DNA from: Candidatus Peregrinibacteria bacterium
GTDB lineage: Bacteria; Patescibacteriota; Gracilibacteria; Peribacterales; Peribacteraceae
Direction of reading: 5' to 3'
NCBI GenBank assembly: GCA_016201685.1
Contig: JACQCJ010000058.1
Location: forward strand, 1 to 40,712
DNA length: 40,712 bases
The notes under the pieces were generated by a model. The model was not told where the DNA came from and did not search any database. It saw only the letters and a program-made list of their open reading frames with translations. Both the position numbers and the translations under genes were made by a program. This document shows, one piece after another, positions 2,961-40,712 of this stretch (positions within the stretch are counted from its first letter, which is position 1; each line of letters opens with the position of its first letter).

Positions 2961-3219
2961 ACGAAAGGGGTAAGGCTTCGCTCTCTGCTCAGCGGAGGTT
3001 CCTTCAAGTACTAAAATAAAACAAAAACATATTATTGTACAACCTATTCTGGCATTGCGAAAAAATCAAGAGTCTCCCGTCAAAAACGTCTAGACGTCGT
3101 AAAGGGCGCGGGGATTCGTTTTCGAGGGGTACGGCGATGGTGACCTTCACATTCTTCGCTGATTCCCGTCACGATTCCTTGGAACGAAAGACGTACGGGA
3201 AAACCCCTGTGTCGTTCTG

Positions 3220-3486
3220 TCAATCATGGTGTCGGGAAATGTGCCATCGGATCCACCAACGCTTCATCCATGGCAGCGAGAACATCGAGAGGAAGAACCC
3301 ACCCGAAGGAATGAGCGCTTGCAGAAGGGGAAAGGGAAGTCCGAGGCTCCACAACACAATCAACGCAATGCCGTAAGTCATGACGACAATCGTCAGACGT
3401 CGCGTCCAGGAGAGCTCCCATGCCTTCTCTCGTTCCACTCGTCGGTTGCGCTCCAGAATTTCCGCGATCTGCGCTTCCACATTCAT
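3220..3486 (-). CDS. Small membrane protein (88 aa, two hydrophobic helices)
   Basis: ORF MNVEAQIAEILERNRRVEREKAWELSWTRRLTIVVMTYGIALIVLWSLGLPFPLLQALIPSGGFFLSMFSLPWMKRWW has an amphipathic N-terminus followed by 2 TM segments. No family recognised. Confidence 0.5.
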   Translation of the reverse strand: MNVEAQIAEILERNRRVEREKAWELSWTRRLTIVVMTYGIALIVLWSLGLPFPLLQALIPSGGFFLSMFSLPWMKRWWIRWHISRHHD

Positions 3487-3506
3487 ATCGCCATTCTATA
3501 CTCTTT

Positions 3507-3614
3507 TGGGCGGGACGACCCGCCTACGCTTGCGAGCTACGGCGAGGTTGCTCGCAGATACCGAATCTTCCGAATGTCTGTGGTGATAATGACTCTGGTC
3601 GGGACGACTGGACT
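3507..3614. repeat. Left copy of a 108-bp direct repeat; contains an orphan copy of the last 19 nt of tRNA-Pro
   Basis: Matches 6861-6968 at a constant offset of 3354 nt, with 2 mismatches by my count (3510, 3553). It ends with TGGTCGGGACGACTGGACT (reverse complement of the tRNA-Pro 3' end) and diverges at 3615. Confidence 0.9.
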
Positions 3615-3845
3615 TCCTTCGGCTCATCCTCGCTCCGCTCGGCTTCGCTCAGGATACACTTCTCGTCCAGTCGCTGTCTTCAGAGTGAATTCTCGAAGGC
3701 GAGATATGATTTTGAATTCTGGTCGGATTGACAGACCAAAGGCAGAAACGTTCTGCATGTTCCAACGCGCGTTCCTGAATATCAAGAACACCATCCAGAA
3801 CAACGGTATCGTGCGACCTATCGAACGCCTTACGCTGGCATTTGC

Positions 3846-5108
3846 CTACGTAGAGATACCTGTTCTCCTGCCCTGCCAACGCGAGAATCCTTGAAAGATA
3901 AGAAGTGAGATCACGGAGACGGGCAAAGAAACTACCGATGTCGCCGGTGTGAGTGTTCCGGTGACCAGCAGTGGTACAAAACTCAAAGCAGCAAGGACAA
4001 CGCTCAGTGTCACAGCTTGATCCGACAGCTTCCAGAAGAGCGAGCCGAAGGTGGGGGGGAAGAGCGCGAGGCTCAAACTGGCGAGCGAGAGACCCAACGC
4101 AATAATATCTTTGTACAAGATTCCAATGATGACACCGACGACTATGAAGAGTGTGATGAAGAATCGGGTCATCCGGCGCATAGAAGATGCACTGAAGCGA
4201 TGTGTGCGGTGTTGGAGGTCTCGCGTAAAGATCGTGGAAACCACGAACGTGACTGTGTCCGATGAGGATAGACAGACTGCGTAGAGCAGCACCATACCAA
4301 GCTCCTTCAATCCACGTGGGAGGAGCGTAGAAAACCCTGCCACGAGCGCATTGTTTGGAGCGATGTCCGGCAACAATTGTTTTGTGACGAGTCCGATCAC
4401 TGCCAACACAAGAGCAAGGAGAGGCAGAATGAATGTGCCGTACATGAGGCCACGCTTCATCGTCGTAATATCGCGTGCGGCGAACATGCGCTGCCACAAA
4501 TCCGGCTGCACCATGATGCCGAAGACGCCAATCACCAAGAAGCCAATGAGTGTACCAGCATCCATCTTTCCAATGAGTTGCACGTCTGCTGATGGAATAC
4601 TCGTTCTTCCAAAGAGATACGCTGCGACCATCACGGTCATGAATATCATGACAAGGAGCTGAAATACATCCGTGTGTACGACTGCCTTGAACCCCGCAAG
4701 CAGAAGATAGGTGAGGATGATCAGGCCACCGATGGCGACGGAGAGCTGGTAAGGTATAGGGAAAATGGCCGACAGTACTTGCGCACTCACGATGAAGTTC
4801 ACCGTCAGCCAGAAGAAAAACGCGATGATGAGAACTACGGAGTATGCAAGTCCACTGCGACGACCGATAGTGTGCAGGAAGTACTCTGGCATGGTGTATA
4901 CCTTGAGTCCATCTGCCTTCTGTTTGATGCGCGTTGCAAATTGCCGGAGACAGAAAAAACCAAGTCCAAGCCCTATGAAAAGCCAAATCGCCGAGAAACC
5001 AAACTGATAGATATAGGCAATGTAGATGGAAAGCGTGGCTCCATCGAAGAAGCCTGCGCTCATTGTCGCCGCAAGCTGGAGACCCATCACATTGCGGTCC
5101 GCAATCAT
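3846..5108 (-). CDS. Sodium:solute symporter family (SSF) transporter, apparently missing its first TM helix
   Basis: 420-aa polytopic ORF. Upstream in the same frame the SSF-typical LFIGWIASRKETEEGF precedes M1 but is cut by an in-frame TGA at 5163-5165, and no TM1 is encoded in any frame. Family call rests on overall SSF-like TM pattern and motifs. Confidence 0.65.
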   Translation of the reverse strand: MIADRNVMGLQLAATMSAGFFDGATLSIYIAYIYQFGFSAIWLFIGLGLGFFCLRQFATRIKQKADGLKVYTMPEYFLHTIGRRSGLAYSVVLIIAFFFWLTVNFIVSAQVLSAIFPIPYQLSVAIGGLIILTYLLLAGFKAVVHTDVFQLLVMIFMTVMVAAYLFGRTSIPSADVQLIGKMDAGTLIGFLVIGVFGIMVQPDLWQRMFAARDITTMKRGLMYGTFILPLLALVLAVIGLVTKQLLPDIAPNNALVAGFSTLLPRGLKELGMVLLYAVCLSSSDTVTFVVSTIFTRDLQHRTHRFSASSMRRMTRFFITLFIVVGVIIGILYKDIIALGLSLASLSLALFPPTFGSLFWKLSDQAVTLSVVLAALSFVPLLVTGTLTPATSVVSLPVSVISLLIFQGFSRWQGRRTGIST

Positions 5109-5148
5109 AAATCCTTCCTCCGTCTCCTTCCTCGATGCAATCCAACCA

Positions 5149-6840
5149 ATGAACAGTTCCTGTCAGCTTTGCTCCGACTCTTTTGAGATCACGCAGAATG
5201 ATCATATATTCCATGAACGTGTTTCGCCGGTTCTCAACGGAAAAAACTACCTCATTTCTCCTCCAAATCTATGCCCCTCTTGCCGTATGCGGCGGAGAGC
5301 GTCGTTCCGTAACGAACGCAGTCTCTACGTACGGACGTGCAACCTCTGCAAGAAATCAATAGTGTCCATCTTCTCGCCGGACAAGACGTATCCGGTCTAT
5401 TGCATCGACTGCTGGTGGAGCGACCGTTGGGACTCCATGCAGTACGGGCGGGCGTTTGATTTCAATAGCTCTTTCTCTGAGCAATGGGGGAAATTATTCG
5501 ACGCCGTTCCAAAGCTTGGTCTATTCCAGCTTCCTGGTGAAGTGAACAGCGCGTACACCCAGGACAATACGGGAGTGAAAAATTGTTACATGACGTTCGA
5601 TGGGGAAGGCGGCGAAGATTCATACTACGGCGAGACGTTCATCAAGATCAAAGACTGCTGCGACTTCCTGGGGCTGCAACAAACTGAACTCGCCTACGAG
5701 TGCGTGCAGTGCCAAGACTGCTACAGCATCACCTTCTCGCGCTTCTGTAGGAATTGTTCCGACTCCGCATTCCTCCTCGATTGCCAGGCTTGCAAACACT
5801 GCTTGGGATGCGCAAATCTCTCGCAAAAAGAGCTCTGCATATTCAATGTTCAGTACACGAAGGAAGAATATGAAAAGAAAGTACTCTCCTACGAACTTCA
5901 TACTCGCAAAGGGCTGGCGCAACTGCGCTCCGAGGCCGAACGTTTCTTCCTCACGCAACCGAGGAAGGCCTGTAGGAATATGATGAGCGAAAATGTGAGC
6001 GGCGATGATCTCATACAGTGTAAAAACGTCCTGGACTCATTCGACTGCATTGGCCTGAGCGATTCCCGGTACTGCACTCACACGTACGGAGCATCGGACT
6101 GCCAAGATGTGGATGGCTGGGGTAATGGCCTCACGGTTGCGTACGATTCATCCTATGTCGGTGGCGGAGCGCAGAATGTAGCCGCGTGCTTTTACGTGGG
6201 CATGGGGGCAAGCAATGTGTACCACAGCGCTTTCTGCATACAGAACGTTGCTAACATCTTCGGTTCCATCGCCCTGATGCATAAGGAGTACTGCATCCTC
6301 AACAAGCAATATACGAAAGAGGAGTATGAGACGTTGACGCCGAGGATTCTGGAACATCTGCAGAAGTCCGGCGAATTGGGGCAGTTTTTCGGAACCGAAC
6401 TCTCGGCCTACGCGTACAACGAATCCGTGGCGCAGGATTACTTTCCATTAAATGAGAAGCAGGCAAAAGAACTGGGATTTACATGGTATTCGGCGGTGAA
6501 AGAAATTCCTGCCGTAAAGAAAATCATCGATGCTTCCGCTCTTCCCGAGTCCATAGACGATGTACCCGATGATGTGCTCAACTGGGCAATTCGCTGCCGA
6601 GTGACCGAACGTCCTTTCCGCATTCAAAATGCGGAACTGAACTTCTGCCGCAAGATGCACATTCCGATTCCACAGTATCACTTCGATGTGCGTCACGCCG
6701 CACGACTCTCTCTACGAAACCCACGCCAAATCTGGCAGAGGCAATGTCAGAAATGTGAGAGGCAGATTGATACGACCTACGCACCGGAACGCCCAGAGAT
6801 CATCTATTGCGAGGAATGCTACCTGAAAGATATATATTGA
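5149..6840 (+). CDS. Cys-rich zinc-ribbon protein (563 aa) with related N- and C-terminal CxxC...CxxC modules and a duplicated Cys-rich core
   Basis: ATG at 5149 (MNSSCQLCSDSF...). The tracked start 5026 would overlap the divergent transporter. N-terminal module LCPSCRMRRRASFRNERSLYVRTCNLCKKSI..YPVYCIDCW resembles the C-terminal module RHAARLSLRNPRQIWQRQCQKCERQI..IIYCEECY. Internal repeat: C(I/L)xNxQYTKEEYE occurs twice. Confidence 0.75.
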   Translation: MNSSCQLCSDSFEITQNDHIFHERVSPVLNGKNYLISPPNLCPSCRMRRRASFRNERSLYVRTCNLCKKSIVSIFSPDKTYPVYCIDCWWSDRWDSMQYGRAFDFNSSFSEQWGKLFDAVPKLGLFQLPGEVNSAYTQDNTGVKNCYMTFDGEGGEDSYYGETFIKIKDCCDFLGLQQTELAYECVQCQDCYSITFSRFCRNCSDSAFLLDCQACKHCLGCANLSQKELCIFNVQYTKEEYEKKVLSYELHTRKGLAQLRSEAERFFLTQPRKACRNMMSENVSGDDLIQCKNVLDSFDCIGLSDSRYCTHTYGASDCQDVDGWGNGLTVAYDSSYVGGGAQNVAACFYVGMGASNVYHSAFCIQNVANIFGSIALMHKEYCILNKQYTKEEYETLTPRILEHLQKSGELGQFFGTELSAYAYNESVAQDYFPLNEKQAKELGFTWYSAVKEIPAVKKIIDASALPESIDDVPDDVLNWAIRCRVTERPFRIQNAELNFCRKMHIPIPQYHFDVRHAARLSLRNPRQIWQRQCQKCERQIDTTYAPERPEIIYCEECYLKDIY

Positions 6841-6860
6841 TTTTGGCTTCCATTAGCCAT

Positions 6861-6968
6861 TGGTCGGGACGACCCGCCTACGCTTGCGAGCTACGGCGAG
6901 GTTGCTAGCAGATACCGAATCTTCCGAATGTCTGTGGTGATAATGACTCTGGTCGGGACGACTGGACT
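6861..6968. repeat. Right copy of the 108-bp direct repeat; overlaps the 3' end of the intact tRNA-Pro
   Basis: See 3507-3614. Positions 6950-6968 are the tRNA-Pro 3' end. The 12-mer GGTCGGGACGAC occurs twice inside the repeat (6862-6873 and 6951-6962). Confidence 0.9.
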
Positions 6969-7026
6969 CGAACCAGCGACCTCTTGCACCCCATGCAAGC
7001 GTTCTAGCCAACTGAACTACGTCCCG
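6950..7026 (-). tRNA. tRNA-Pro (anticodon GGG), CCA encoded
   Basis: The reverse complement folds as a cloverleaf: CGGGACG-TA-GTTC-AGTTGGCTA-GAAC-G-CTTGC-ATGGGGT-GCAAG-AGGTC-GCTGG-TTCGAGT-CCAGT-CGTCCCG-A-CCA. Anticodon loop is AT-GGG-GT. Confidence 0.9.
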
Positions 7027-7102
7027 AAAATGACAACCGAATGTTGAAGAGAAAGAACAAAGGGGAAACTTGTCCTGATGTTGAGAGTATACAGACCTCA
7101 TC

Positions 7103-8380
7103 TCAGAACGGCGACTCATACACCGCACTCTCCCCCAATTCCTCCTCGATGCGCAGGAGCCGGTTGTATTTGCACAGGCGGTCGGTGCGCGAAAGGGAGC
7201 CGGTCTTGATCTGTCCCGTCTGGAGCCCCACCGCCAAGTCGGCGATGAAGGTGTCTTCGGTCTCGCCGCTGCGGTGACTCACGACCGCTTTCCATCCAGA
7301 CTTTTGGGTTGTCTGAATGGCATCCACGGTTTCGCTCACCGTACCGATCTGGTTGAGTTTGATGAGGACGGCATTGGCGGCCTTCTTCGCGATGCCCTGC
7401 TCGATCCGCGCGACGTTCGTGACGAAGAGATCATCGCCCACAAGCTGGAGCCGGGAACCGAGTTTCCGTTGCATCAACGCGAAGCCTTCCCAGTCATCTT
7501 CGCTGTGGCTGTCTTCGACGGACACGATAGGATAGCGCTTCGCGAGTGCGTGGTAATTCTCGACGAGCGCGGCGGCATCCATTCCTTTTCCATCGACGGT
7601 GTAGAGGCCGTTTGCGCAGAATTCCGTGGCGGCGGCATCGAGCGCGATCGTCACCTTCCCTTCGTACCCGGCCAGCGCGATCGCTTCGACGAGGATGCTG
7701 CACGCGTGATCGGCGTCCGCCACGTGCGGGGCGAACCCTCCCTCATCGCCCACCGCGATCACGTACTGGAAGTTCGTGAGGATGTCCTTGAGGGCGTAGA
7801 ACACTTCGGCCCCGGCTCGAAGCGCTTCATGGAACGACGAGAGACCCGTCGGAACGATCATGAATTCCTGGAAGCTCAACCCCGAATCGGCATGCACGCC
7901 GCCGTTGAGGACGTTCATCAGCGGCACGGGCAGCGAGACAGAATCCAAACGAGAGACACCGAACTGGTCCGCGAGCGAAGTCCACAGCGACCGGCGCTCG
8001 CTCGCCGCCCGCGCGCGGCACACGGCCATCGAGACGCCGAGGATCGCATTGGCACCGAGGCTCGCTTTATTCGCCGTCCCATCGAGGTCGACGAGCAGGC
8101 GATCGATTGCGCGGTGATCGGCGCTGTCTCTCCCCGTGAGTGCCTTCGTGATCGGCCCCTCGACGTTCGCAACGGCCTTCAGCACGGACTTCCCCCGGAA
8201 CTTCTTCGGATCGCCGTCGCGCAGTTCGAGCGCTTCGTGGCTCCCCGTCGAAGCCCCCGATGGAACCGCCGCCCGCCCGAAGCTTCCATCGCTGAGCAGA
8301 CAATCCACCTCCACCGTCGGCGTGCCGCGGGAATCGAGGATTTGACGTGCATGGATGATGGAAATGCAAACCATACTCAT
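7103..8380 (-). CDS. eno: Enolase (phosphopyruvate hydratase)
   Basis: MSMVCISIIHARQILDSRGTPTVEVD...SGASTGSHEALELRDGD...SHRSGETEDTFIADLAV..GQIKTGSLSRTDRLCKYNRLLRIEEEL. 425 aa from the ATG at 8378-8380. The tracked 815-aa ORF merely runs on upstream with no stop. Confidence 0.95.
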   Translation of the reverse strand: MSMVCISIIHARQILDSRGTPTVEVDCLLSDGSFGRAAVPSGASTGSHEALELRDGDPKKFRGKSVLKAVANVEGPITKALTGRDSADHRAIDRLLVDLDGTANKASLGANAILGVSMAVCRARAASERRSLWTSLADQFGVSRLDSVSLPVPLMNVLNGGVHADSGLSFQEFMIVPTGLSSFHEALRAGAEVFYALKDILTNFQYVIAVGDEGGFAPHVADADHACSILVEAIALAGYEGKVTIALDAAATEFCANGLYTVDGKGMDAAALVENYHALAKRYPIVSVEDSHSEDDWEGFALMQRKLGSRLQLVGDDLFVTNVARIEQGIAKKAANAVLIKLNQIGTVSETVDAIQTTQKSGWKAVVSHRSGETEDTFIADLAVGLQTGQIKTGSLSRTDRLCKYNRLLRIEEELGESAVYESPF

Positions 8381-8401
8381 GAAAGAGGAAAAAAAGGCAA
8401 C

Positions 8402-8565: not shown

Positions 8566-9816
8566 TCATACTGCTGTTCCACGCCCCACCGTGCTGAACT
8601 GTCCGAGCGACTGCGGCCCCGCGCCCACGCGCACGTAGTCCCGCATGAGCTCTTTGGCATCCTCGGAGGAGGCGCTCTGCGCGAGCCGCGTGAACGCGAG
8701 AAAATCCCCCTTGTTGTCGATCATGCGGGAGACCTGCTTCGCCACCGTCGGATCGTGGATCTCCAGTGACGCGAAGAGCTCTCTGCGCTGTTCCGCCGTC
8801 AGCGTCTTCCCTCGTTGCCGCAGCGTGCGGACGGCATCCCGCAATTCGGTGGAAGGTTGCTCCTGCATCTGCTCGATCAGCTTCGACCACGCTTCTCCCC
8901 GGATCCCGTACGCGAGCAGGATGCGTTCTCCCGGGCCGCCGATCTTCGTCAGGCCCGAAGCCAGACGGATCGTCCGCTTGTCCTGCGGCTCCAGGAGGGC
9001 GCGCCCGCCGCCCGCGGCAAGCCCCGCGACTCCCAGGTACATCGCCGGGACCGTGAAGTCGTTCTGCCCCGAGAGCGCGCTCGCGGCGCCCGTGAAGAGC
9101 CCGAGCGAGCCGGTGGTGATGAAGGTGATGAGGCGCGCGAACTTGCCCAGGTTCTCGCCGGCTTTCTTTTGGGCGGGGCCGGTCGCAATCACGGAGCGCG
9201 GGTAGGCGGGCGACGTGCCGAGCACGCGCTCGTACCCCTGGATGTACGCGAGCACCTCTCGCAGCGCGGCCCGCTGACTGCCCTGCACGACGCCCGATTG
9301 CATCCATCCCTCGATGCGTTCGCGCCCGGTGCGCAGCGCCCACGCGAAGTGGATCGGGTTGAACGTCGCTTTGCCTTCCTCCGGCTGCGCGTAGCTCGCT
9401 CTGTCCTCGATGCCCTGGATGATCGAAAGCGCCTGATGCTGAAGGCTCTCGGGCAACTGCGCGCTCGAGAGCACTCCCTCCAGTCGTTCGGCATGCGCCG
9501 CTCCGCGCGCGCTCTGGGAACGCACGCGCCCGGCAGCCCCTTCGGACCATTCCTTCTGCTCGGCGAAGAGCCGGTTCTGAATCTCCTGCCGCATGGGGAG
9601 GAACGCTGCATTGTTGATCGCTTCAGGGGAGCTGAAGAGGCTCGCGCGTCCGAGCGTCGACCGTGTGCGGACATTCCATCGTTCCCGATTCTCGCGGACT
9701 CGCAAGCGTTCCATCTGCCATCCGACCGCAAGGCCCGGCGCCGTGAGTCCCCGCCGATTGAGGAAGAAGTTCCCGGGGCGGAAGTCTGGGCCGGCGGGAC
9801 GCGAGAAGTTGCGCAT
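8566..9816 (-). CDS. Hypothetical protein (416 aa) with a central hydrophobic/Gly-rich segment; downstream partner of the VirB6-like gene
   Basis: ATG at 9814-9816 lies 14 nt after the stop of 9830..11623 (the tracked start 9975 would overlap it). Contains LITFITTGSLGLFTGAASALSG...AMYLGVAGLAAGGG. No family recognised. Confidence 0.55.
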   Translation of the reverse strand: MRNFSRPAGPDFRPGNFFLNRRGLTAPGLAVGWQMERLRVRENRERWNVRTRSTLGRASLFSSPEAINNAAFLPMRQEIQNRLFAEQKEWSEGAAGRVRSQSARGAAHAERLEGVLSSAQLPESLQHQALSIIQGIEDRASYAQPEEGKATFNPIHFAWALRTGRERIEGWMQSGVVQGSQRAALREVLAYIQGYERVLGTSPAYPRSVIATGPAQKKAGENLGKFARLITFITTGSLGLFTGAASALSGQNDFTVPAMYLGVAGLAAGGGRALLEPQDKRTIRLASGLTKIGGPGERILLAYGIRGEAWSKLIEQMQEQPSTELRDAVRTLRQRGKTLTAEQRRELFASLEIHDPTVAKQVSRMIDNKGDFLAFTRLAQSASSEDAKELMRDYVRVGAGPQSLGQFSTVGRGTAV

Positions 9817-12588: not shown

Positions 12589-14088
12589 ATGCCCTCCGCC
12601 ATTCTTCATCGACAGGCCGCAGCGTACGTGAAGAAGTTGCCCGAGATCGCTCCGGGGTACACCGTGCGCGTGCATGAGCGCATTAAAGAAGGGGAGAAGG
12701 AACGCGTGCAAATCTTCGAGGGGCTCGTGATCGGCGTCCATCGCGGTCACAGCGCGACCGATGCGACGTTCACCGTCCGCCGCATCGCGTCGGGGATCGG
12801 CGTCGAGCGGATCTTCTCGATCCATTCGCCGATGGTCGAAAAGGTCGATGTGCGCAAAGTCGCCAGGGTTCGTCGCGCGAAGCTCTCGTTCCTCCGCGGG
12901 CGCCGCGGTAAATCCGCGCGCCTGAGCGAGCGGTTCACGAGTGCCGACGAATTCGCGATCGCCGTGCAAGCGTCTGAGAAGGAGGAAGCGTCTGTTTCGG
13001 CGGAGGAAAGTGTTTCTTCAGAGCAGAAGTCTCGTGAGGATCATCTGCGACGGTATACTCGTTCCATGCTTCTCCTGCTCGTGGGAAATTACGGGGTCGG
13101 CAATCTCGGCGATGAAGCGTTGAAAGACTACTTCCTCTCGCGTTTTCCGGAGGTCGATTGGACGGTCGTGTCGGCTCATCCTCAAGGTGAACATGATGTA
13201 CCGCGCCTGCCGCTCGGGTTTCGTTCCTTCTTCGCCACGCCGTGGCCGCGCACACTGAAAGCCCTCTGGTCCTGCGATGGCGTTGTGTTCGGCGGAGGAG
13301 CGCTCTTCACGGAGAGCGAGTCCCGTTTCGCCGTTGTGCTGTGGTGGTCGCATGCCGCTTTCGCGATGGCGTTTCGAAGGCCCATCCTTCTCGCGTTCCA
13401 GGGTATCGGCCCGTTTTCGACGCGACTCGGCCGATGGATGACGCGCTTCGTCCTGCGTCGCGCCCGATTCATTTCCGTCCGCGATCCGCTCTCGGTCAGA
13501 CGCGTTTGTCATCTCTGTCCGGGAATTCCGGTTACGGAGTCCTTCGATCCTGTCTTTGCGGTGTCTCGCGCCTTGGTGCCGCGGTCGATTCGTTCTCCGC
13601 GGTCGCTGGCCCTCATTCCACGTGCAACAATCTCGGCATCGTTTGAGAAGCGGGTCCGTGATCTCCTGCGCCAAGGCGACGTCACGAGTGTGCGCATCCT
13701 CTCCCTGCAGCCCGATGATCTGCGAGAATCGGAAACGTGCCGAATGCTCGCGACGAAATTCTCCGCGGACGTCGTCCCCATCCGGTCCCTCGCGGACCTG
13801 ATCTCGGCCATCGAAGAATCGCGTCTCGTCCTCTCGCAGCGTTACCACGGGGCCATCGCGGCGCTGGCGCTTCGCGTTCCGTACCTGATTGTGGAGCAGA
13901 CGGATGGCGACAAATTCGCGTCGCTTCGTCCCTGGAGCGGGAAGATCGTGGATCATCAGACGATCGCCGAATTGCAGAGGCGTGTGGATGAGGGAGAGAG
14001 GGGATTGCGGGAGGCTCTTGTTGCTCTTGGACGCTTAAAAAATTCCTCAGATCATCCTTCGATACGCGCCGCCGCGATGTCAGGCTGA
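12589..14088 (+). CDS. rplS: Ribosomal protein bL19 continuous in frame with a polysaccharide pyruvyl transferase (CsaB-like) domain
   Basis: aa 1-115 are PGYTVRVHERIKEGEKERVQIFEGLVIGVHRG...FTVRRIASGIGVERIFSIHSPMVEKVDVRKVARVRRAKLSFLRGRRGKSARLSER (bL19). An acidic Ser/Glu linker follows. From M160 (ATG 13066) MLLLLVGNYGVGNLGDEAL...RDPLS...SQRYHGAIAALALRVP is pyruvyl-transferase-like. There is no stop between the two parts. Confidence 0.85.
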   Translation: MPSAILHRQAAAYVKKLPEIAPGYTVRVHERIKEGEKERVQIFEGLVIGVHRGHSATDATFTVRRIASGIGVERIFSIHSPMVEKVDVRKVARVRRAKLSFLRGRRGKSARLSERFTSADEFAIAVQASEKEEASVSAEESVSSEQKSREDHLRRYTRSMLLLLVGNYGVGNLGDEALKDYFLSRFPEVDWTVVSAHPQGEHDVPRLPLGFRSFFATPWPRTLKALWSCDGVVFGGGALFTESESRFAVVLWWSHAAFAMAFRRPILLAFQGIGPFSTRLGRWMTRFVLRRARFISVRDPLSVRRVCHLCPGIPVTESFDPVFAVSRALVPRSIRSPRSLALIPRATISASFEKRVRDLLRQGDVTSVRILSLQPDDLRESETCRMLATKFSADVVPIRSLADLISAIEESRLVLSQRYHGAIAALALRVPYLIVEQTDGDKFASLRPWSGKIVDHQTIAELQRRVDEGERGLREALVALGRLKNSSDHPSIRAAAMSG

Positions 14089-19836: not shown

Positions 19837-19902
19837 CAAACAATTCAACAAGAGACCAGGTTTGAAATCTCAAACGGTTCTTGATGATTGATGAATTGTT
19901 TG
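19837..19902. repeat. 66-nt palindromic MITE-like repeat (CAAACAATTC...GAATTGTTTG), copy 1
   Basis: Its reverse complement matches 32644-32708 at about 86% by my hand alignment. Termini are inverted repeats CAAACAATTCA.CAA / TTGATGAATTGTTTG. It is intergenic. Confidence 0.8.
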
Positions 19903-19980
19903 AGCGAAGTCATACTTTCTCTCCCAACAATTTCTCGTCAACCTTCACTCCATGACGTTTTGCGAGTTCCACGAACATCG

Positions 19981-20843: not shown

Positions 20844-20846
20844 GAG

Positions 20847-20932
20847 AATTGCGAAGGGCGAAGGGCGAGTTGCGAATGACGAATTGTGAGAGCGGCCATG
20901 TCATCCTGAGCCTGTCGAAGGGTGGCCGCCGA
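20847..20932. repeat. Composite MITE-like element: GCGAA-rich arm plus 43-nt hairpin core (copy A)
   Basis: GAATTGCGAAGGGCGAAGGGCGAGTTGCGAATGACGAATTG followed by TGAGAGCGGCCATGTCATCCTGAGCCTGTCGAAGGGTGGCCGC (20888-20930). The reverse complement of the core matches 35137-35179 at 41/43. Confidence 0.85.
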
Positions 20933-22001: not shown

Positions 22002-22038
22002 GATGATGAAGTTCTCGGTCAATGATGACAAGAGGGGA

Positions 22039-22133
22039 ATGGCGAGTTGCAAATTGCGAGTTGCGAATTTCTTCCATCATTCGCAATTTGCCTGCCCTGA
22101 GCCGAGTCGAAGGGCCCTTCGCCCTTCGCAATT
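22039..22133. repeat. Composite GCGAA-arm / CCTGAGC..TCGAAGG element (copy B)
   Basis: GGCGAGTTGCAAATTGCGAGTTGCGAATTTCTTCCATCATTCGCAATTTGCCTGCCCTGAGCCGAGTCGAAGGGCCCTTCGCCCTTCGCAATTCC. Same building blocks as 20847-20932 and 35136-35234. Confidence 0.75.
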
Positions 22134-26414: not shown

Positions 26415-26717
26415 ATGTTGAATTCTTTTGAATCGCCCTGTGGAAAACTCCTGCGATGGAAGAGCGAAAGGAAAAGTGCGACGTTCGCAGTATTTTTTAG
26501 ATTTTTATTTTCCTTTGCACTTCGCCATCGATGTCCTCAAATATTCAGATCTCAAGGTCATCTCATACCCAAGAGTTCCGAAACGAGCCTCTACGGGGCT
26601 GTTTTGAGGGAAGTGCCAATTTGAGAAGGATTTTGGCCTCAATCAGCTGATCCTCTTTTGAACAGATTCTGGCAATGTCTTCTTGATATTCAAGATAAGA
26701 TGCATTATGTTGAAACT

Positions 26718-27659
26718 ATGAAACTACAATTCCACTCCCCTCTGGCCAGCGCCATCAACCGCTATTTCTCTTTTTTGAAGTCGGAAGAAAACAAATCGAC
26801 ACTCACCGTCCAAAACTATCGTCAGTCGCTGGATCTTTTTTTGACACAATCCCCTCTTCAGGATGTAAAAGGCTTTTCAAAAGAAGCCGTCCGCGCTTAC
26901 AAGGAGAAATTGCATGAATTCCGCACGAGACAGGGGAAGGAATTATCCATCCGGACAAAAAATCACCATTTGACGGTGTTGCGTGCTTTTCTTCGGTATC
27001 TGATACAAGAAGAAGAATTGGATACCTATCCGCCAGACCGAGTGAAGCGATTCAAAGAAGAGCAGAGGAAAGTCAAAGTGTTGTACATCGATGATCTGAA
27101 AAGGCTGTTGGAAGCGCCCGATCATGAAAGCAAGGATGGAAAGAGAGACCGGGCCATATTGCAACTTTTTTTCTCCACGGGTTTGCGTCTGGCTGAATTG
27201 CGGTCGCTCAATCGCAAAGATCTGAATTTTCAGACACGCGAGATCAGCGTGCGCGGCAAACGAAACAAACTCCGGGTCGTGTTTCTCTCGGATGCCGCCG
27301 TTGACGCATTACAAACGTATCTGAATGTTCGCCTTGATCATCTTCATCCGCTTTTCATTCATTATAACGATAAGGCTGCGCAGGAGATGCCCCCGGGGGA
27401 GAATTTTCGCCTGACCAGTAATGCCATTTACCGCATTGTGAAGAAATACGCCCGAATGGCGGGGATCGTTTCCGATCCTTCTCCTCATACTCTGCGCCAT
27501 TCCTTCGCGACTAATCTGCTCCAAAACGGCGCCGACCTTCGTTCCGTTCAAGAAATGCTCGGTCATAAAGATCTCTCGACAACGCAGATCTATACGCATG
27601 TCACCGATCCTCAGTTGAAAGAGGCCCACAGGAAGTTTCATGGCCTTCGTAAGGAATAA
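26718..27659 (+). CDS. Tyrosine site-specific recombinase, XerC/XerD-like
   Basis: N-terminal SAM-like domain (TVQNYRQSLDLFL, NHHLTVLRAFLRYL). Catalytic core: RDRAILQLFFSTGLRLAELRSL...ISVRGKRNKLRVVFLS...PHTLRHSFATNLLQNGADLRSVQEMLGHKDLSTTQIYTHV (R..HxxR..Y). Start taken at MKLQFHS (26718). Confidence 0.88.
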   Translation: MKLQFHSPLASAINRYFSFLKSEENKSTLTVQNYRQSLDLFLTQSPLQDVKGFSKEAVRAYKEKLHEFRTRQGKELSIRTKNHHLTVLRAFLRYLIQEEELDTYPPDRVKRFKEEQRKVKVLYIDDLKRLLEAPDHESKDGKRDRAILQLFFSTGLRLAELRSLNRKDLNFQTREISVRGKRNKLRVVFLSDAAVDALQTYLNVRLDHLHPLFIHYNDKAAQEMPPGENFRLTSNAIYRIVKKYARMAGIVSDPSPHTLRHSFATNLLQNGADLRSVQEMLGHKDLSTTQIYTHVTDPQLKEAHRKFHGLRKE

Positions 27660-32471: not shown

Positions 32472-32643
32472 CAGAAAATGATGAGAAACCCGAAGCCAAG
32501 GAACGAGGCGATCGCAGAAAGCATCAAGCTGCCCGCCCGAACGTACCGACCCGCCAGACCGCTGTCGGGCTGGCGTTCGGACGGGCGGACAAGACTCCAG
32601 CCGTTCGAGGCCCTGACGGGCCCTCAGGCCCGGAACGGGTGTT

Positions 32644-32708
32644 CAAACAATTCATCAATGATCAAGAACATCTTGAATATTCAAACCTGGTTTCTTGATG
32701 AATTGTTT
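32644..32708. repeat. Palindromic MITE-like repeat (CAAACAATTC...GAATTGTTT), copy 2
   Basis: See 19837-19902. It is immediately followed by a CCTGAGCAGAGTCGAAGGGTGA unit (32714-32737). Confidence 0.8.
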
Positions 32709-35135: not shown

Positions 35136-35234
35136 CGCGGCCACCCTTCGACAAGCTCAGGGTGACATGGCCGCTCTCAGGTTCTTACAATTTTGAATTC
35201 TGATTCGCAATTCGCCACTTGCAATTCGCAATTC
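35136..35234. repeat. Composite MITE-like element (copy C, inverted relative to copy A)
   Basis: GCGGCCACCCTTCGACAAGCTCAGGGTGACATGGCCGCTCTCA (35137-35179) followed by ...GATTCGCAATTCGCCACTTGCAATTCGCAATTC. The core matches the reverse complement of 20888-20930 at 41/43. Confidence 0.85.
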
Positions 35235-35246
35235 ATCCCTCAATCA

Positions 35247-36569
35247 ATGTCTCTCTTCTCTCCCATCCACCACACGTTCGCCCCTCTTGCAGACGCACGG
35301 CTGCGCCGCTGCGCCCGCGCACTCTCGTACCTGCCATGGCGCTACAAGCGCGGACCGTACAGTGAAAAACTCCGAAGGGCGCTCGAGGAGAAATTCGGGG
35401 GAAGAGCCTTCCTCTTCTCCACCGGCCGCGAGGCGCTCTTCGCGTTTCTTCAATCGATTCCCTCAAAACCCGGCGACGAAGTGATCATCCAGAGTTACAC
35501 CTGCGTTGTCGTCCCAAATGCCATTCATGCCGCCGGACTCAAGACGGTCTACTGCGACATCGAACGCGACACGCTGAGTCTGGATTGCGAAGAGATCGAA
35601 GTGCTCATCACGCCGAAGACGTGTGCGATCATTTGCCAACACACCTTCGGCATTCCCGCGGACACCAAGCGCCTGCGGGAAATCTGTGACCGTCACGGGA
35701 TTCTGCTCATCGAAGACTGCGCGCACGTGATCCCGGATGAAACCGGACCACGCGACATCGGAACAGAGGGCGATGCGCTCCTTCTCAGTTTCGGCCGAGA
35801 CAAAGCCATCTCCGGCATCACCGGCGGGGCCATCATCAGCCGCGTTGCCTCGGCGAATCCCACGCTCGAGCGGATGGCCAAGCACGCGCACGATCTCTCC
35901 TTCTTCACGATTCTGCGGCTGCTCGAATACCCGAACATCTACGGCTGGGCGAAGCTCTTCTACGGCCTTGGGATGGGCAAATTCTCGCTCTTCCTGCACT
36001 CAAAGATCGGAGCGCTTCGACCCATTCTAACAAGCGACGAAAAACATGGCCGCATGCGCACGGTCCTCCACCGCATCCCCGACGTCTGCGCCGCCCTCGC
36101 CCTCGAACAACTGGAGCGTCTACGGGAACTGAATGATCATCGGAGGATGTTGACGAAGTTTTTCCTTGAGGAAGGAAAAAAGAGAAGATGGCCGATGCTA
36201 CATTGCTTCTGTCCTGGTGAGCGCGTCGAACCATGGACAGAAGCAAAATTGTCGACCCTTCGACGGGCTCAGGGTGACAATTTGATAGTTGTTCAGGAAT
36301 CTCCCCTCCAAAAATTCCCCCTCTTCGTCCGCGGCGCCGAAAAAATCCGCCGCGCGCTCAAGAAAAAAAATATTCATCTCCACGACGGCTGGACGGGCTG
36401 TGTCGTGTGCCCCGCCTCCGTGCACCTCCCCGATACCGGCTATGAAATGGGCAACGATCTGGCGGCCGAAGCCGTCTGCGAAGAAATCCTCAGCTTGCCG
36501 ACGCATCCGACGATGAGTCTGAAGCAGGCAAAAGAGCTTGTGGAAGCCCTGGATCATCTGCTTCAATGA
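35247..36569 (+). CDS. DegT/DnrJ/EryC1/StrS-family PLP-dependent sugar aminotransferase, carrying an in-frame repeat-derived insertion
   Basis: STGREALFAFLQSI...GDEVIIQSYTCVVVPNAI..AGLKTVYCDI......IICQHTFGIPAD...I.....GILLIEDCAH.....LLLSFGRDKAISG (Schiff-base Lys). Residues around ..EAKLSTLRRAQGDNL.. are encoded by the REP core at 36251-36278. Confidence 0.85.
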   Translation: MSLFSPIHHTFAPLADARLRRCARALSYLPWRYKRGPYSEKLRRALEEKFGGRAFLFSTGREALFAFLQSIPSKPGDEVIIQSYTCVVVPNAIHAAGLKTVYCDIERDTLSLDCEEIEVLITPKTCAIICQHTFGIPADTKRLREICDRHGILLIEDCAHVIPDETGPRDIGTEGDALLLSFGRDKAISGITGGAIISRVASANPTLERMAKHAHDLSFFTILRLLEYPNIYGWAKLFYGLGMGKFSLFLHSKIGALRPILTSDEKHGRMRTVLHRIPDVCAALALEQLERLRELNDHRRMLTKFFLEEGKKRRWPMLHCFCPGERVEPWTEAKLSTLRRAQGDNLIVVQESPLQKFPLFVRGAEKIRRALKKKNIHLHDGWTGCVVCPASVHLPDTGYEMGNDLAAEAVCEEILSLPTHPTMSLKQAKELVEALDHLLQ

Positions 36570-37166: not shown

Positions 37167-37223
37167 TTGATTTCAGTATAGCCGCGGATAGGAGCGAGTC
37201 AAATCTTTTTGAGAGCCCGCTGC

Positions 37224-37412
37224 GGCTGGACGGGCTGTGTCGTCTGCCCTGCCTCGGTGCATCTCCCCGATACCAGCTACGAACTGGGCAACGATCCGGC
37301 TGCCGAAGCCCTCTGCGAAGAAATCCTCAGCTTGCCGACGCATCCGACGATGACGACGAAACAAGCGAAGGAATTGGTGGACGCTTTGGATCTTGTCCTT
37401 CAGAAAAAATGA
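37224..37412 (+). pseudogene. Orphan, diverged duplicate of the DegT aminotransferase 3' end (last ~60 codons)
   Basis: GWTGCVVCPASVHLPDTSYELGNDPAAEALCEEILSLPTHPTMTTKQAKELVDALDLVLQKK* compared with the DegT C-terminus GWTGCVVCPASVHLPDTGYEMGNDLAAEAVCEEILSLPTHPTMSLKQAKELVEALDHLLQ* (36387-36569). No upstream DegT body. Confidence 0.8.
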
Positions 37413-40363: not shown

Positions 40364-40712
40364 ATGACAGTCTCCGCAGCCACCAATGCCCACGAGTGGG
40401 ACGCCTTCCTCATCGGTCAGCGTTTCCGCCCGTTCCTCCAGAGCTGGACAATGGGCGAAGTGTATCGGGAGATCGGCCAGGAACCGGTTCGCCTGGAGGT
40501 TCGAGAAAACGGGAGGATCGTCGGCATCTGCTTCGGGCATGTTGTTCCCGCTAAGCGAGGAAAACATTTGGCCATTCCCTATGGACCAATTTGCGAAGGG
40601 CGAATTGCGAAGGGCGAATTGGACATTGATTCGCAACTCGCAACTCGCAACTCGCAATTCTTCCCATGGATTGATTCTTTGAAAGAAATTGCCAAAGCAC
40701 ATCGCTGTTCCT
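40364..40712 (+). CDS. FemAB-family (aa-tRNA-dependent peptidoglycan interpeptide-bridge transferase-like) protein, 5' part; runs off the right window edge
   Basis: This frame is not in the ORF track because it has no stop before the edge: MTVSAATNAHEWDAFLIGQRFRPFLQSWTMGEVYREIGQEPVRLEVRENGRIVGICFGHVVPAKRGKHLAIPYGPI[CEGRIAKGELDIDSQLATRNSQF]FPWIDSLKEIAKAHRC. The bracketed part is encoded by the GCGAA repeat. Confidence 0.65.
   Translation, partial: MTVSAATNAHEWDAFLIGQRFRPFLQSWTMGEVYREIGQEPVRLEVRENGRIVGICFGHVVPAKRGKHLAIPYGPICEGRIAKGELDIDSQLATRNSQFFPWIDSLKEIAKAHRCS
40588..40660. repeat. GCGAA-heptamer palindromic element inside the FemAB-like CDS
   Basis: AATTTGCGAAGGGCGAATTGCGAAGGGCGAATTGGACATTGATTCGCAACTCGCAACTCGCAACTCGCAATTC. 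Two inverted arms of tandem (G)CGAA(N)T units, the same family as 20847-, 22039- and 35190-35234. Confidence 0.8.

Follow-up and report, generated by a model that had tools for sequence, protein, structure and literature searches.

How does a pair of genes with no recombinase at hand come to lie at the 3′ end of a tRNA gene, enclosed by two copies of a long direct repeat? The question is posed by a locus (tags HY213_03295 to HY213_03310) in an uncultivated bacterium from groundwater, a Candidatus Peregrinibacteria/Peribacteria metagenome-assembled genome (MAG); the window analysed here is one complete NCBI contig of 40,712 nt. Next to its tRNA-Pro(GGG) gene, a 109-nt repeat encloses a transporter gene of the SSF (sodium:solute symporter) family and a divergent Cys-rich gene, together called the cassette below. 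We lean, with somewhat better than even confidence, towards reading the region as a composite array at the tRNA-Pro(GGG) 3′ end, holding a decaying relic that lacks a recombinase, is flanked by attachment (att) sites in the manner of a cis-mobilisable element (CIME) and was brought in by recombination between copies of the tRNA tail. This reading is carried by the anatomy of the array, the want of a cassette at orthologous loci, a repeat module that relatives have in single copy, block joints at the edges of tail copies and a deletion polymorphism; from these we infer a recombinase, a circular intermediate and an order of events.

A repeat search of the whole contig returned only two long direct repeats in 40.7 kb, and the one at issue, being one of only two, is far beyond chance. 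Its copies are 98% identical over 109 nt at a spacing of 3354 nt (Table 1) and differ at 3510 (g) versus 6864 (t) and at 3548 (c) versus 6902 (a), each carrying one derived base relative to related loci L014 and L025. A preliminary description of this DNA had given a 108-bp repeat at the same constant offset with two mismatches, which was correct but for one further base. It had also placed the last 19 nt of an intact minus-strand tRNA-Pro(GGG) in the right copy, a reading with which ARAGORN and Rfam agree: the right repeat begins 3 nt into the T-loop and overlaps the final 19 nt of the gene (6950–6968), whose sequence is 100% identical to that of tRNA-Pro in L014 and L045. The left repeat has the identical 19 nt and no tRNA body and diverges at 3615, a T-loop position, again as described. 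The locus has in this respect the form of an insertion into the 3′ part of a tRNA gene, with an intact tRNA regenerated and a direct repeat at the far boundary.

Finer structure emerges from the tail motif, defined as the last 13 nt of the tRNA (GTCGTCCCGACCA in tRNA sense). A motif scan found five tail copies (a, b, e, c and d), every one on the tRNA strand. Within each repeat, the second 13-nt copy lies 89 nt from the first, so that the acceptor-like motif previously suspected at about this distance is a real nested copy, exact at 6861–6873 and with one mismatch at 3507–3519. In tRNA sense, the order is tRNA, a, a 76-nt spacer, b, 20 nt to the stop codon of the Cys-rich gene, the Cys-rich gene, the SSF gene, a terminator-like hairpin and copy e; there follow the 105-nt block X′, c, a second 76-nt spacer, d and, 20 nt beyond the left repeat, the start codon of an 88-aa gene. 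Sequence blocks change only at tail-copy edges, and the copies, 13 or 19 nt long, always end in CCA.

To place this array in context, we compared it with loci of other genomes, 27 of them found through a flanking 559-aa protein and 63 through the 19-nt tail; the relatives of the window are Candidatus Peribacteria. Twelve loci (L006, L007, L009, L013, L014, L015, L021, L023, L027, L029, L045 and L064) keep a common neighbourhood of enolase gene, tRNA-Pro(GGG), the gene for the 559-aa protein and an LPG_synthase_C gene, and none of them has an SSF or Cys-rich gene there. The cassette is absent from the orthologous site in relatives that are only 67–86% identical to the window in enolase amino acid sequence. 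In three of them, the next gene after the tRNA, and on its strand, is a homologue of the 88-aa gene, at a distance of 11 nt (L029), about 118 nt (L021) and about 165 nt (L023); these are the loci, with tRNA-Pro directly before the 3220–3486 gene, for which the preliminary description had called. All orthologous loci found lack the cassette, and its view of the cassette as an insertion at the tRNA-Pro 3′ end has held. The next best flank relatives in a database search, at 65–68% amino acid identity, lie on contigs under 1 kb; the databases contain none closer, and no near-identical strain with an empty site was found in them.

The same comparison explains the length of the repeat. A spacer followed by a second, exact or near-exact tail copy occurs once each in L014, L025, L045 and L050/L067, with spacers 42–68% identical between genomes and second tail copies matching at 12–13 of 13 positions. 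As this module is single-copy there, the long repeat is best seen as two copies of the module and not as a long att core. The repeat does extend past the tRNA, as was first noted, but the 90 nt beyond the tRNA are conserved host sequence and not part of an unusually long core. L050 and L067 share the same tRNA and module and diverge straight after copy b, where L050 runs into an element of about 100 nt that abuts the tRNA itself in L021 and L056. This divergence and this alternative placement show copy b to be a genuine recombination joint, and the module itself to be an old insertion with a 13-nt duplication. When Rfam was searched with 3000–7300, accepting E up to 1, and with five related loci, applying the gathering score, nothing but tRNA was returned; the module hence represents no known RNA family and no detectable pseudo-tRNA.

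Three observations on these sequences may be added. The module (6861–6949 and 3507–3595) folds into two hairpins, the 3′ strand of the second running into copy b; in alignment A4, which has five sequences only, 84% of cells are paired, four pairs show compensatory changes and the covariation score was reached by only 3 of 500 shuffles. The element of about 100 nt (GGTGAATTCGAGC...GGCCCCGCATACGAGCGCAGCGAGTTGTGCGGGGCC; L021 about 9660–9776 on the minus strand, L056 38–140, L050 after copy b) is by eye highly conserved, with scattered substitutions, though the enolases concerned are each about 70–76% identical to that of the window, and it has no Rfam family match. Whether X′ might be the native flank seen behind the tRNA of L021, L050 and L056 was also considered, but the similarity was not significant (z about 2.5) and the idea was dropped.

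The limits of the extra DNA are set by L014, from the closest MAG (GCA_964488295.1), which carries the identical tRNA-Pro. After its single module, L014 continues b, GAATTCA..., CTGAGCGAAGCCGA..., AGGAAGTCCGCTCGTC, which is colinear with the stretch of the window leading from e across X′ to c; CCGACCAGAATTCA, found in the window at copy e, is identical to the L014 junction after copy b, and X′ and L014 have two exact 14-mers in the same order and a local alignment that, compared with shuffles, reaches z = 8.7. Given this colinearity, the DNA that the window has in excess of L014 is 3733–6860 (3128 nt), bounded by copies b and e. The long repeat had been taken to delimit the cassette; the repeat is real, but relative to L014 it is the 13-nt copies b and e that form the boundary. 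Beside the start of its 88-aa gene, L014 further contains 14 nt derived from the tRNA 5′ end. In the same MAG, a Cys-rich orthologue (81% amino acid identity) lies at another locus (L003), adjoining tRNA-Ser(GCT) and without an SSF gene.

Table 1. Features of the tRNA-Pro(GGG) array and its surroundings in the 40,712-nt window
Feature	Position	Strand	Basis or remark
tRNA-Pro(GGG), intact, CCA encoded	6950–7026	-	ARAGORN; Rfam RF00005, 63.4 bits
Right 109-nt repeat: 19-nt tRNA tail (a), 76-nt spacer (6874–6949), 13-nt copy b (6861–6873)	6860–6968	-	
Left 109-nt repeat: 19-nt copy c (3596–3614), 76-nt spacer (3520–3595), 13-nt copy d (3507–3519)	3506–3614	-	
Tail copy a, inside tRNA	13-mer 6950–6962; 19-nt form 6950–6968	-	Motif scan
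Tail copy b, 13/13	6861–6873	-	Motif scan
Tail copy e, degenerate, GTCAATCCGACCA, 10/13	3720–3732	-	Motif scan; missing from the preliminary description
Tail copy c, 19/19	3596–3614	-	Motif scan
Tail copy d, 12/13	3507–3519	-	Motif scan
Block X′, 105 nt, between copies e and c	3615–3719	-	Colinear with L014 stretch from copy b to degenerate third copy
Terminator-like hairpin, after SSF stop codon, 9 nt ahead of copy e	3742–3756	-	
Sodium:solute symporter gene HY213_03305, 5′-truncated	3846–5162	-	Pfam SSF, 4.4e-20
Cys-rich gene HY213_03310, 563 aa	5149–6840	+	Native start and ribosome-binding site lost; new in-frame ATG 5149–5151
Junction of 92-nt deletion versus sibling assemblies	5155–5156		blastn of L001, L002 against window
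88-aa membrane-protein gene HY213_03300, outer flank	3220–3486	-	Homologue directly after tRNA-Pro in L021, L023, L029
Enolase gene, conserved flank at tRNA side	7103–8395	-	Pfam; synteny in relatives
XerC/XerD-type recombinase, outside the islet	26658–27659	+	Pfam Phage_integrase and SAM_1; best NCBIfam matches XerC, XerD

Other genomes carry other cargo at this tRNA. In L015 (9142–9535), an 88-aa GIY-YIG nuclease gene (9238–9504) lies between the tRNA-Pro 3′ end and an 18-nt copy 375 nt downstream, and L071 has a 1.5-kb insert bracketed by tail copies. A PIN toxin gene (L013) and MgtE (L009) are found beside the tRNA elsewhere, and cargo differs again in L007 and L005. Within Peribacteria, tRNA-Pro(GGG) is met in either orientation with respect to its enolase and 559-aa neighbours (L005–L035, L045, L064, L096). 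In L025, near-perfect inverted repeats of about 71 nt (about 1140–1215 and 1530–1600) surround the tRNA and module, between two divergent 559-like paralogues. The L015 insert resembles a miniature version of the arrangement in the window. In L062 (1209–1452), it is a tRNA-Pro(TGG) that has an exact 19-nt GGG-type tail copy 150 nt downstream, flanked by phage-like genes (AAA ATPase); this locus may hold a genuine integrated element that employs the core in a different lineage.

What the cassette carries points to a chromosomal source. Annotation and translation agree with the earlier account that only two genes lie between the repeats, a 5′-truncated SSF gene without the first transmembrane segment (TM1) and a divergent Cys-rich gene, with an in-frame stop at 5163–5165. 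The SSF open reading frame (ORF) from the ATG at 5108 has 420 aa, and residual TM1 codons extend to that stop. The Cys-rich protein is one of a family that numbers more than 5000 homologues in Peregrinibacteria- and Gracilibacteria-type bacteria of the Candidate Phyla Radiation (CPR); these proteins, of about 560 aa, often occur as tandem paralogue arrays (L056 3494–11567, L010, L104) and are repeatedly linked to an SSF transporter. It has no NCBIfam match and no Pfam match above cut-off (one below, a treble-clef zinc finger), a single weak match among PDB sequences (E = 0.042) and, for a fairly confident AlphaFold model (predicted local distance difference test, pLDDT, 79.5; predicted template modelling score, pTM, 0.81), no Foldseek match in PDB. 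L104 has an SSF gene and a Cys-rich orthologue (82% amino acid identity) paired divergently in like manner across 43 nt of intergenic DNA, within the 40–43 nt seen for such pairs; the L104 pair is chromosomal, among paralogues and TrmB-like genes, with no tRNA and no tail copies there. L004 is similar, having the same two genes with one extra gene between them. As the pair is conserved away from the tRNA in L104 and L004, the cassette represents part of an ordinary chromosomal SSF/Cys-rich module.

The composition of the cassette is only mildly atypical: its GC content is 0.511 against 0.558 for the contig (5th percentile), and at third codon positions (GC3) its genes have 0.61–0.62 against 0.65–0.80 in most other genes checked. 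Neither the plasmids of PLSDB nor the phages of INPHARED matched the cassette DNA, matches of the Cys-rich protein in IMG/VR were no more than marginal, and viral contigs with the tail motif have nothing else in common with the locus. No gene remnants of an integrative and conjugative element (ICE) or integrative and mobilisable element (IME) were found in the cassette, nor any match to it in plasmid, phage or viral collections. Annotation, Pfam and NCBIfam likewise found no recombinase between the repeats, the integrase expected of an integrative element being absent; this is as first described, the SSF and Cys-rich genes being all that the cassette holds.

The missing TM1, likewise noted in the preliminary description, has an explanation of its own. 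Logan contigs from two sequencing runs (SRR12113409 and SRR12113410) match the cassette at 100% identity and contain an additional 92 nt between 5155 and 5156 (L001 1646–1737, L002 142–233). As flank contigs from both runs match the window at 100%, these assemblies represent the same strain. With the 92 nt, L001 encodes a full SSF protein of 451 aa that aligns from residue 1 with L004 and L104, and its Cys-rich gene begins MQRSC behind a GGAG motif. Lost with the deletion are the start codons of the two divergent genes, a ribosome-binding site, the 40 nt between the genes and codons 1–31 of the SSF gene, and with them TM1; in the window allele, a chance ATG at 5149–5151 keeps the Cys-rich frame open (MNSSC). 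The loss of TM1 is therefore a deletion polymorphism and not a property of the cassette as acquired. Most likely it varies within the population and marks the decay of the islet, although it may instead be an error of the MAG, and HY213_03305 and HY213_03310 are probably disabled alleles. Reading the in-frame TGA with genetic code 25 was considered and dropped, the 92-nt deletion accounting for the loss of TM1.

Taken together, these results suggest how the array may have formed. The tRNA-Pro(GGG) 3′ end would be a recurrent insertion hotspot in Peribacteria, to which a two-gene block from an ordinary chromosomal SSF/Cys-rich locus would have been moved by recombination at tail copies. That recombination was most likely site-specific, since every joint coincides with the edge of a core and it is in the T-loop that the 19-nt core starts; the crossover would have lain in the region from T-loop to acceptor; the recombinase gene may have been on the element and since been lost, or the enzyme may act in trans. 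The T-loop is reportedly a classic crossover sublocation of tRNA-targeting integrases. The 109-nt repeat would have arisen if inserted unit and target each bore the normal tail–spacer–tail module of the clade. By one route, a related array would have released a circle by excision between its copies a and c, and this circle would have re-inserted at a site of the form tRNA, module, 88-aa gene; by another, a tandem double insertion would have been followed by internal deletion between tail copies. The islet would now be decaying, with the 92-nt deletion disabling both start regions in part of the population. Judged from the 98% identity of the repeats, homologous recombination between them could plausibly loop out the 3354-nt unit, and such an event, if it occurred, would restore the architecture of L014, L025 and L045. 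The Campbell-type integration and the loop-out put forward in the preliminary description are both still plausible.

Relics of this kind are known elsewhere. CIMEs retain attL and attR, have lost their integration and transfer genes and occur in tandem accretions (PMC5704250). Like the CIMEs of the ICESt1/ICESt3 family of Streptococcus thermophilus (PMC5704250), the window has a segment between attL- and attR-like tRNA 3′-end copies with no integration or transfer genes inside, and this lies in tandem with other relics at one site; the intact 19-nt and 13-nt tail copies that flank the unit are putative att sites. It differs in that no parent ICE or IME and no integrase are visible in its clade, in that the cargo is two ordinary chromosomal genes in an element of only 3.1–3.35 kb, and in that the flanking identity reaches 109 nt, a conserved host module being included. 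The tandem ssrA islands of Dehalococcoides provide a second parallel: these insert mid-T-loop, with 20-bp copies of the ssrA 3′ end at their bounds, and 15 of them, which lack an integration module, have been proposed to be CIMEs (PMC3146451). They share with the window the many direct repeats of a small-RNA 3′ end downstream, the T-loop insertion and the stacking of islands, but many contain a serine recombinase (DsiB) module and their 20-bp repeat is uniform (PMC3146451), whereas the window has no recombinase in view, two core lengths (13 and 19 nt) and, the cassette apart, tiny blocks of 76–105 nt. Classical tRNA-targeting elements with tyrosine integrases are alike in the regenerated tRNA, the direct repeat from T-loop to CCA end, the absence of the insert from orthologous sites and the mildly atypical composition; they are unlike in that the window has no integrase gene beside an att site and a repeat that runs 90 nt past the tRNA. 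The locus has the look of a genomic islet of known type in decay and reveals no new mechanism. Two further readings were rejected: for a transposon or insertion sequence, there is no transposase, there are no terminal inverted repeats at the cassette ends and the flanking repeat is 109 nt long; for an integron, there is no IntI beside the array, the joints are direct tRNA-tail copies and not attC sites, and the Xer-type gene scores 125 bits against an integron-integrase cut-off of 265.

Several points weigh against a relic brought in at the tail copies. A site-specific core alone leaves 109 nt of identity unexplained, no recognisable integrase was seen at any related locus examined at this tRNA, and L062 has phage-like genes at its tRNA-Pro(TGG), yet no integrase was seen there either. 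The sole recombinase of the contig is of Xer type and lies 20 kb away. Copy e, at 10/13, is by itself at chance level (about 1.1 such matches are expected in the region), and gains its support from the colinearity of the window with L014 at that point. The closest relatives are distant, as their enolases show (67–86% amino acid identity), and the indel relative to L014 could be an insertion in the lineage of the window or a deletion in L014.

The main rival is homologous recombination alone, whether a circular or duplicated fragment bearing the 109-nt module was joined to the resident module by a RecA-type (Campbell) event or gene conversion made or homogenised the second module, in either case with no site-specific recombinase. 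Identity of 98% over 109 nt is ample for such recombination, the module is host sequence widespread in the clade, neither the window nor any related locus at this tRNA yielded an integrase, and the inverted repeats of about 71 nt in L025 show that long repeats do arise around it. An arbitrary fragment, however, would not place the repeat ends and all other joints at the edges of 13- or 19-nt tail copies; in other genomes, unrelated inserts are bracketed by the same tail copies, and the source of a circle already containing the module would still need explaining. We consider this explanation unlikely, if less so than vertical presence or an assembly artefact.

Were the cassette ancestral, its genes would have been at the tRNA before the split from L014-like genomes, the relatives would have lost them between b and e, and gene conversion would have kept the two modules alike. 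The L014 arrangement (b, GAATTCA..., X′, degenerate c) does resemble the array of the window minus the cassette, cut precisely between b and e; a tail remnant ahead of the 88-aa gene in L014 and L032 implies that parts of the array are old, and L056 has Cys-rich paralogues a few kb from tRNA-Pro. Set against these are more than 12 loci, in three arrangement types, without the cassette genes, the placement of the Cys-rich orthologue of the L014 MAG (81% amino acid identity) elsewhere, adjoining tRNA-Ser, and a cassette composition at the low edge for the contig. The two modules of the window, moreover, differ at 2 of 109 nt, but by about 40% from the L014 spacer. An ancestral cassette thus strikes us as distinctly improbable.

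Assembly was examined through the Logan contigs. L001 spans 3511 to 6894, whilst L105 and L106 run from 3540 leftwards at 100% identity to the window, and each of the three breaks off after 30 of the 37 nt that lie, alike in both repeat copies, between the mismatches. Such ends are expected for a k = 31 graph of the structure in the window; the same graph also fits a circle together with an empty site, as graphs at this k do not phase the two repeat mismatches. That independent assemblies of two runs break exactly at the shared 37 nt disposes of the concern, raised at the outset, that the repeat is an assembly duplication, and the phasing of (g, c) and (t, a) in the contig argues for the integrated state. 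That a separate 3.35-kb circle or a repeat-collapsed region was wrongly joined to the chromosome at the shared 109 nt, a notion encouraged by the looping k = 31 graphs (L001 starts and ends with the same 30 nt, and an integrated copy or a circle plus an empty site would both fit) and by the 92-nt indel between MAG and Logan contigs, is scarcely credible given that the contig pairs its mismatches as it does (an assembler with k above 39 needs reads supporting that phasing), that L105, L106 and L001, which come from two runs, are 100% identical to the window as far as the shared stretch, and that the segment encodes no replication function.

The tail-copy relic that we favour can be extended into a bolder proposal, which we hold to be very doubtful. 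In Peribacteria, the tRNA-Pro(GGG) tail, with the structured spacer–tail module, might be a dedicated landing pad at whose tail copies small recombinase-less blocks are captured, stacked, inverted and lost, served in trans by a recombinase encoded elsewhere that could be, for example, the single Xer-type enzyme or an unrecognised one. Hints in this direction are the at least five independent inserts bracketed by tail copies with no integrase seen, the strong conservation of the second tail copy despite divergent spacers, the hairpin with weak covariation that runs into this copy and the flips of tRNA orientation among relatives. If true, this would be a tRNA-anchored cassette platform, similar to integrons or to integrative mobile elements exploiting Xer (IMEX), among bacteria whose genomes are very small.

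Elsewhere the contig has a housekeeping character, with genes for L19, TsaE, PGK, a Mur ligase, a family 4 glycosyltransferase and an M23 peptidase. The L19 gene is unusual: the plus-strand ORF at 12589–14088 encodes 499 aa that combine ribosomal protein L19 (residues 11–115) with a polysaccharide pyruvyl transferase domain (172–432), either as a fusion or through a lost stop codon. Other repeats are a 180-nt direct repeat (36386–36565 and 37223–37402; 85%), a 66-nt inverted repeat with arms 12.7 kb apart (19838–19903 and 32643–32708), a 43-nt inverted repeat (20887–20929 and 35137–35179; 95%) and short intergenic repeats of the GCGAAGGGCGAAGG type clustered at 20846–20891, 22023–22068 and 40588–40660.

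For annotation, the practical consequence is that the 109-nt repeat and the five tail copies account for contig breaks, and the locus offers a test case for read-level detection of excision. Its wider interest lies in the organisms themselves. CPR/Patescibacteria have small genomes in which few integrated mobile elements have been described, and the routes by which they gain and lose genes are scarcely documented. Here, one tRNA gene provides a well-resolved case of a hotspot for repeated insertion, inversion and deletion across a family, at which an ordinary transporter/Cys-rich gene pair would appear to have been relocated and to be undergoing inactivation within a single population.

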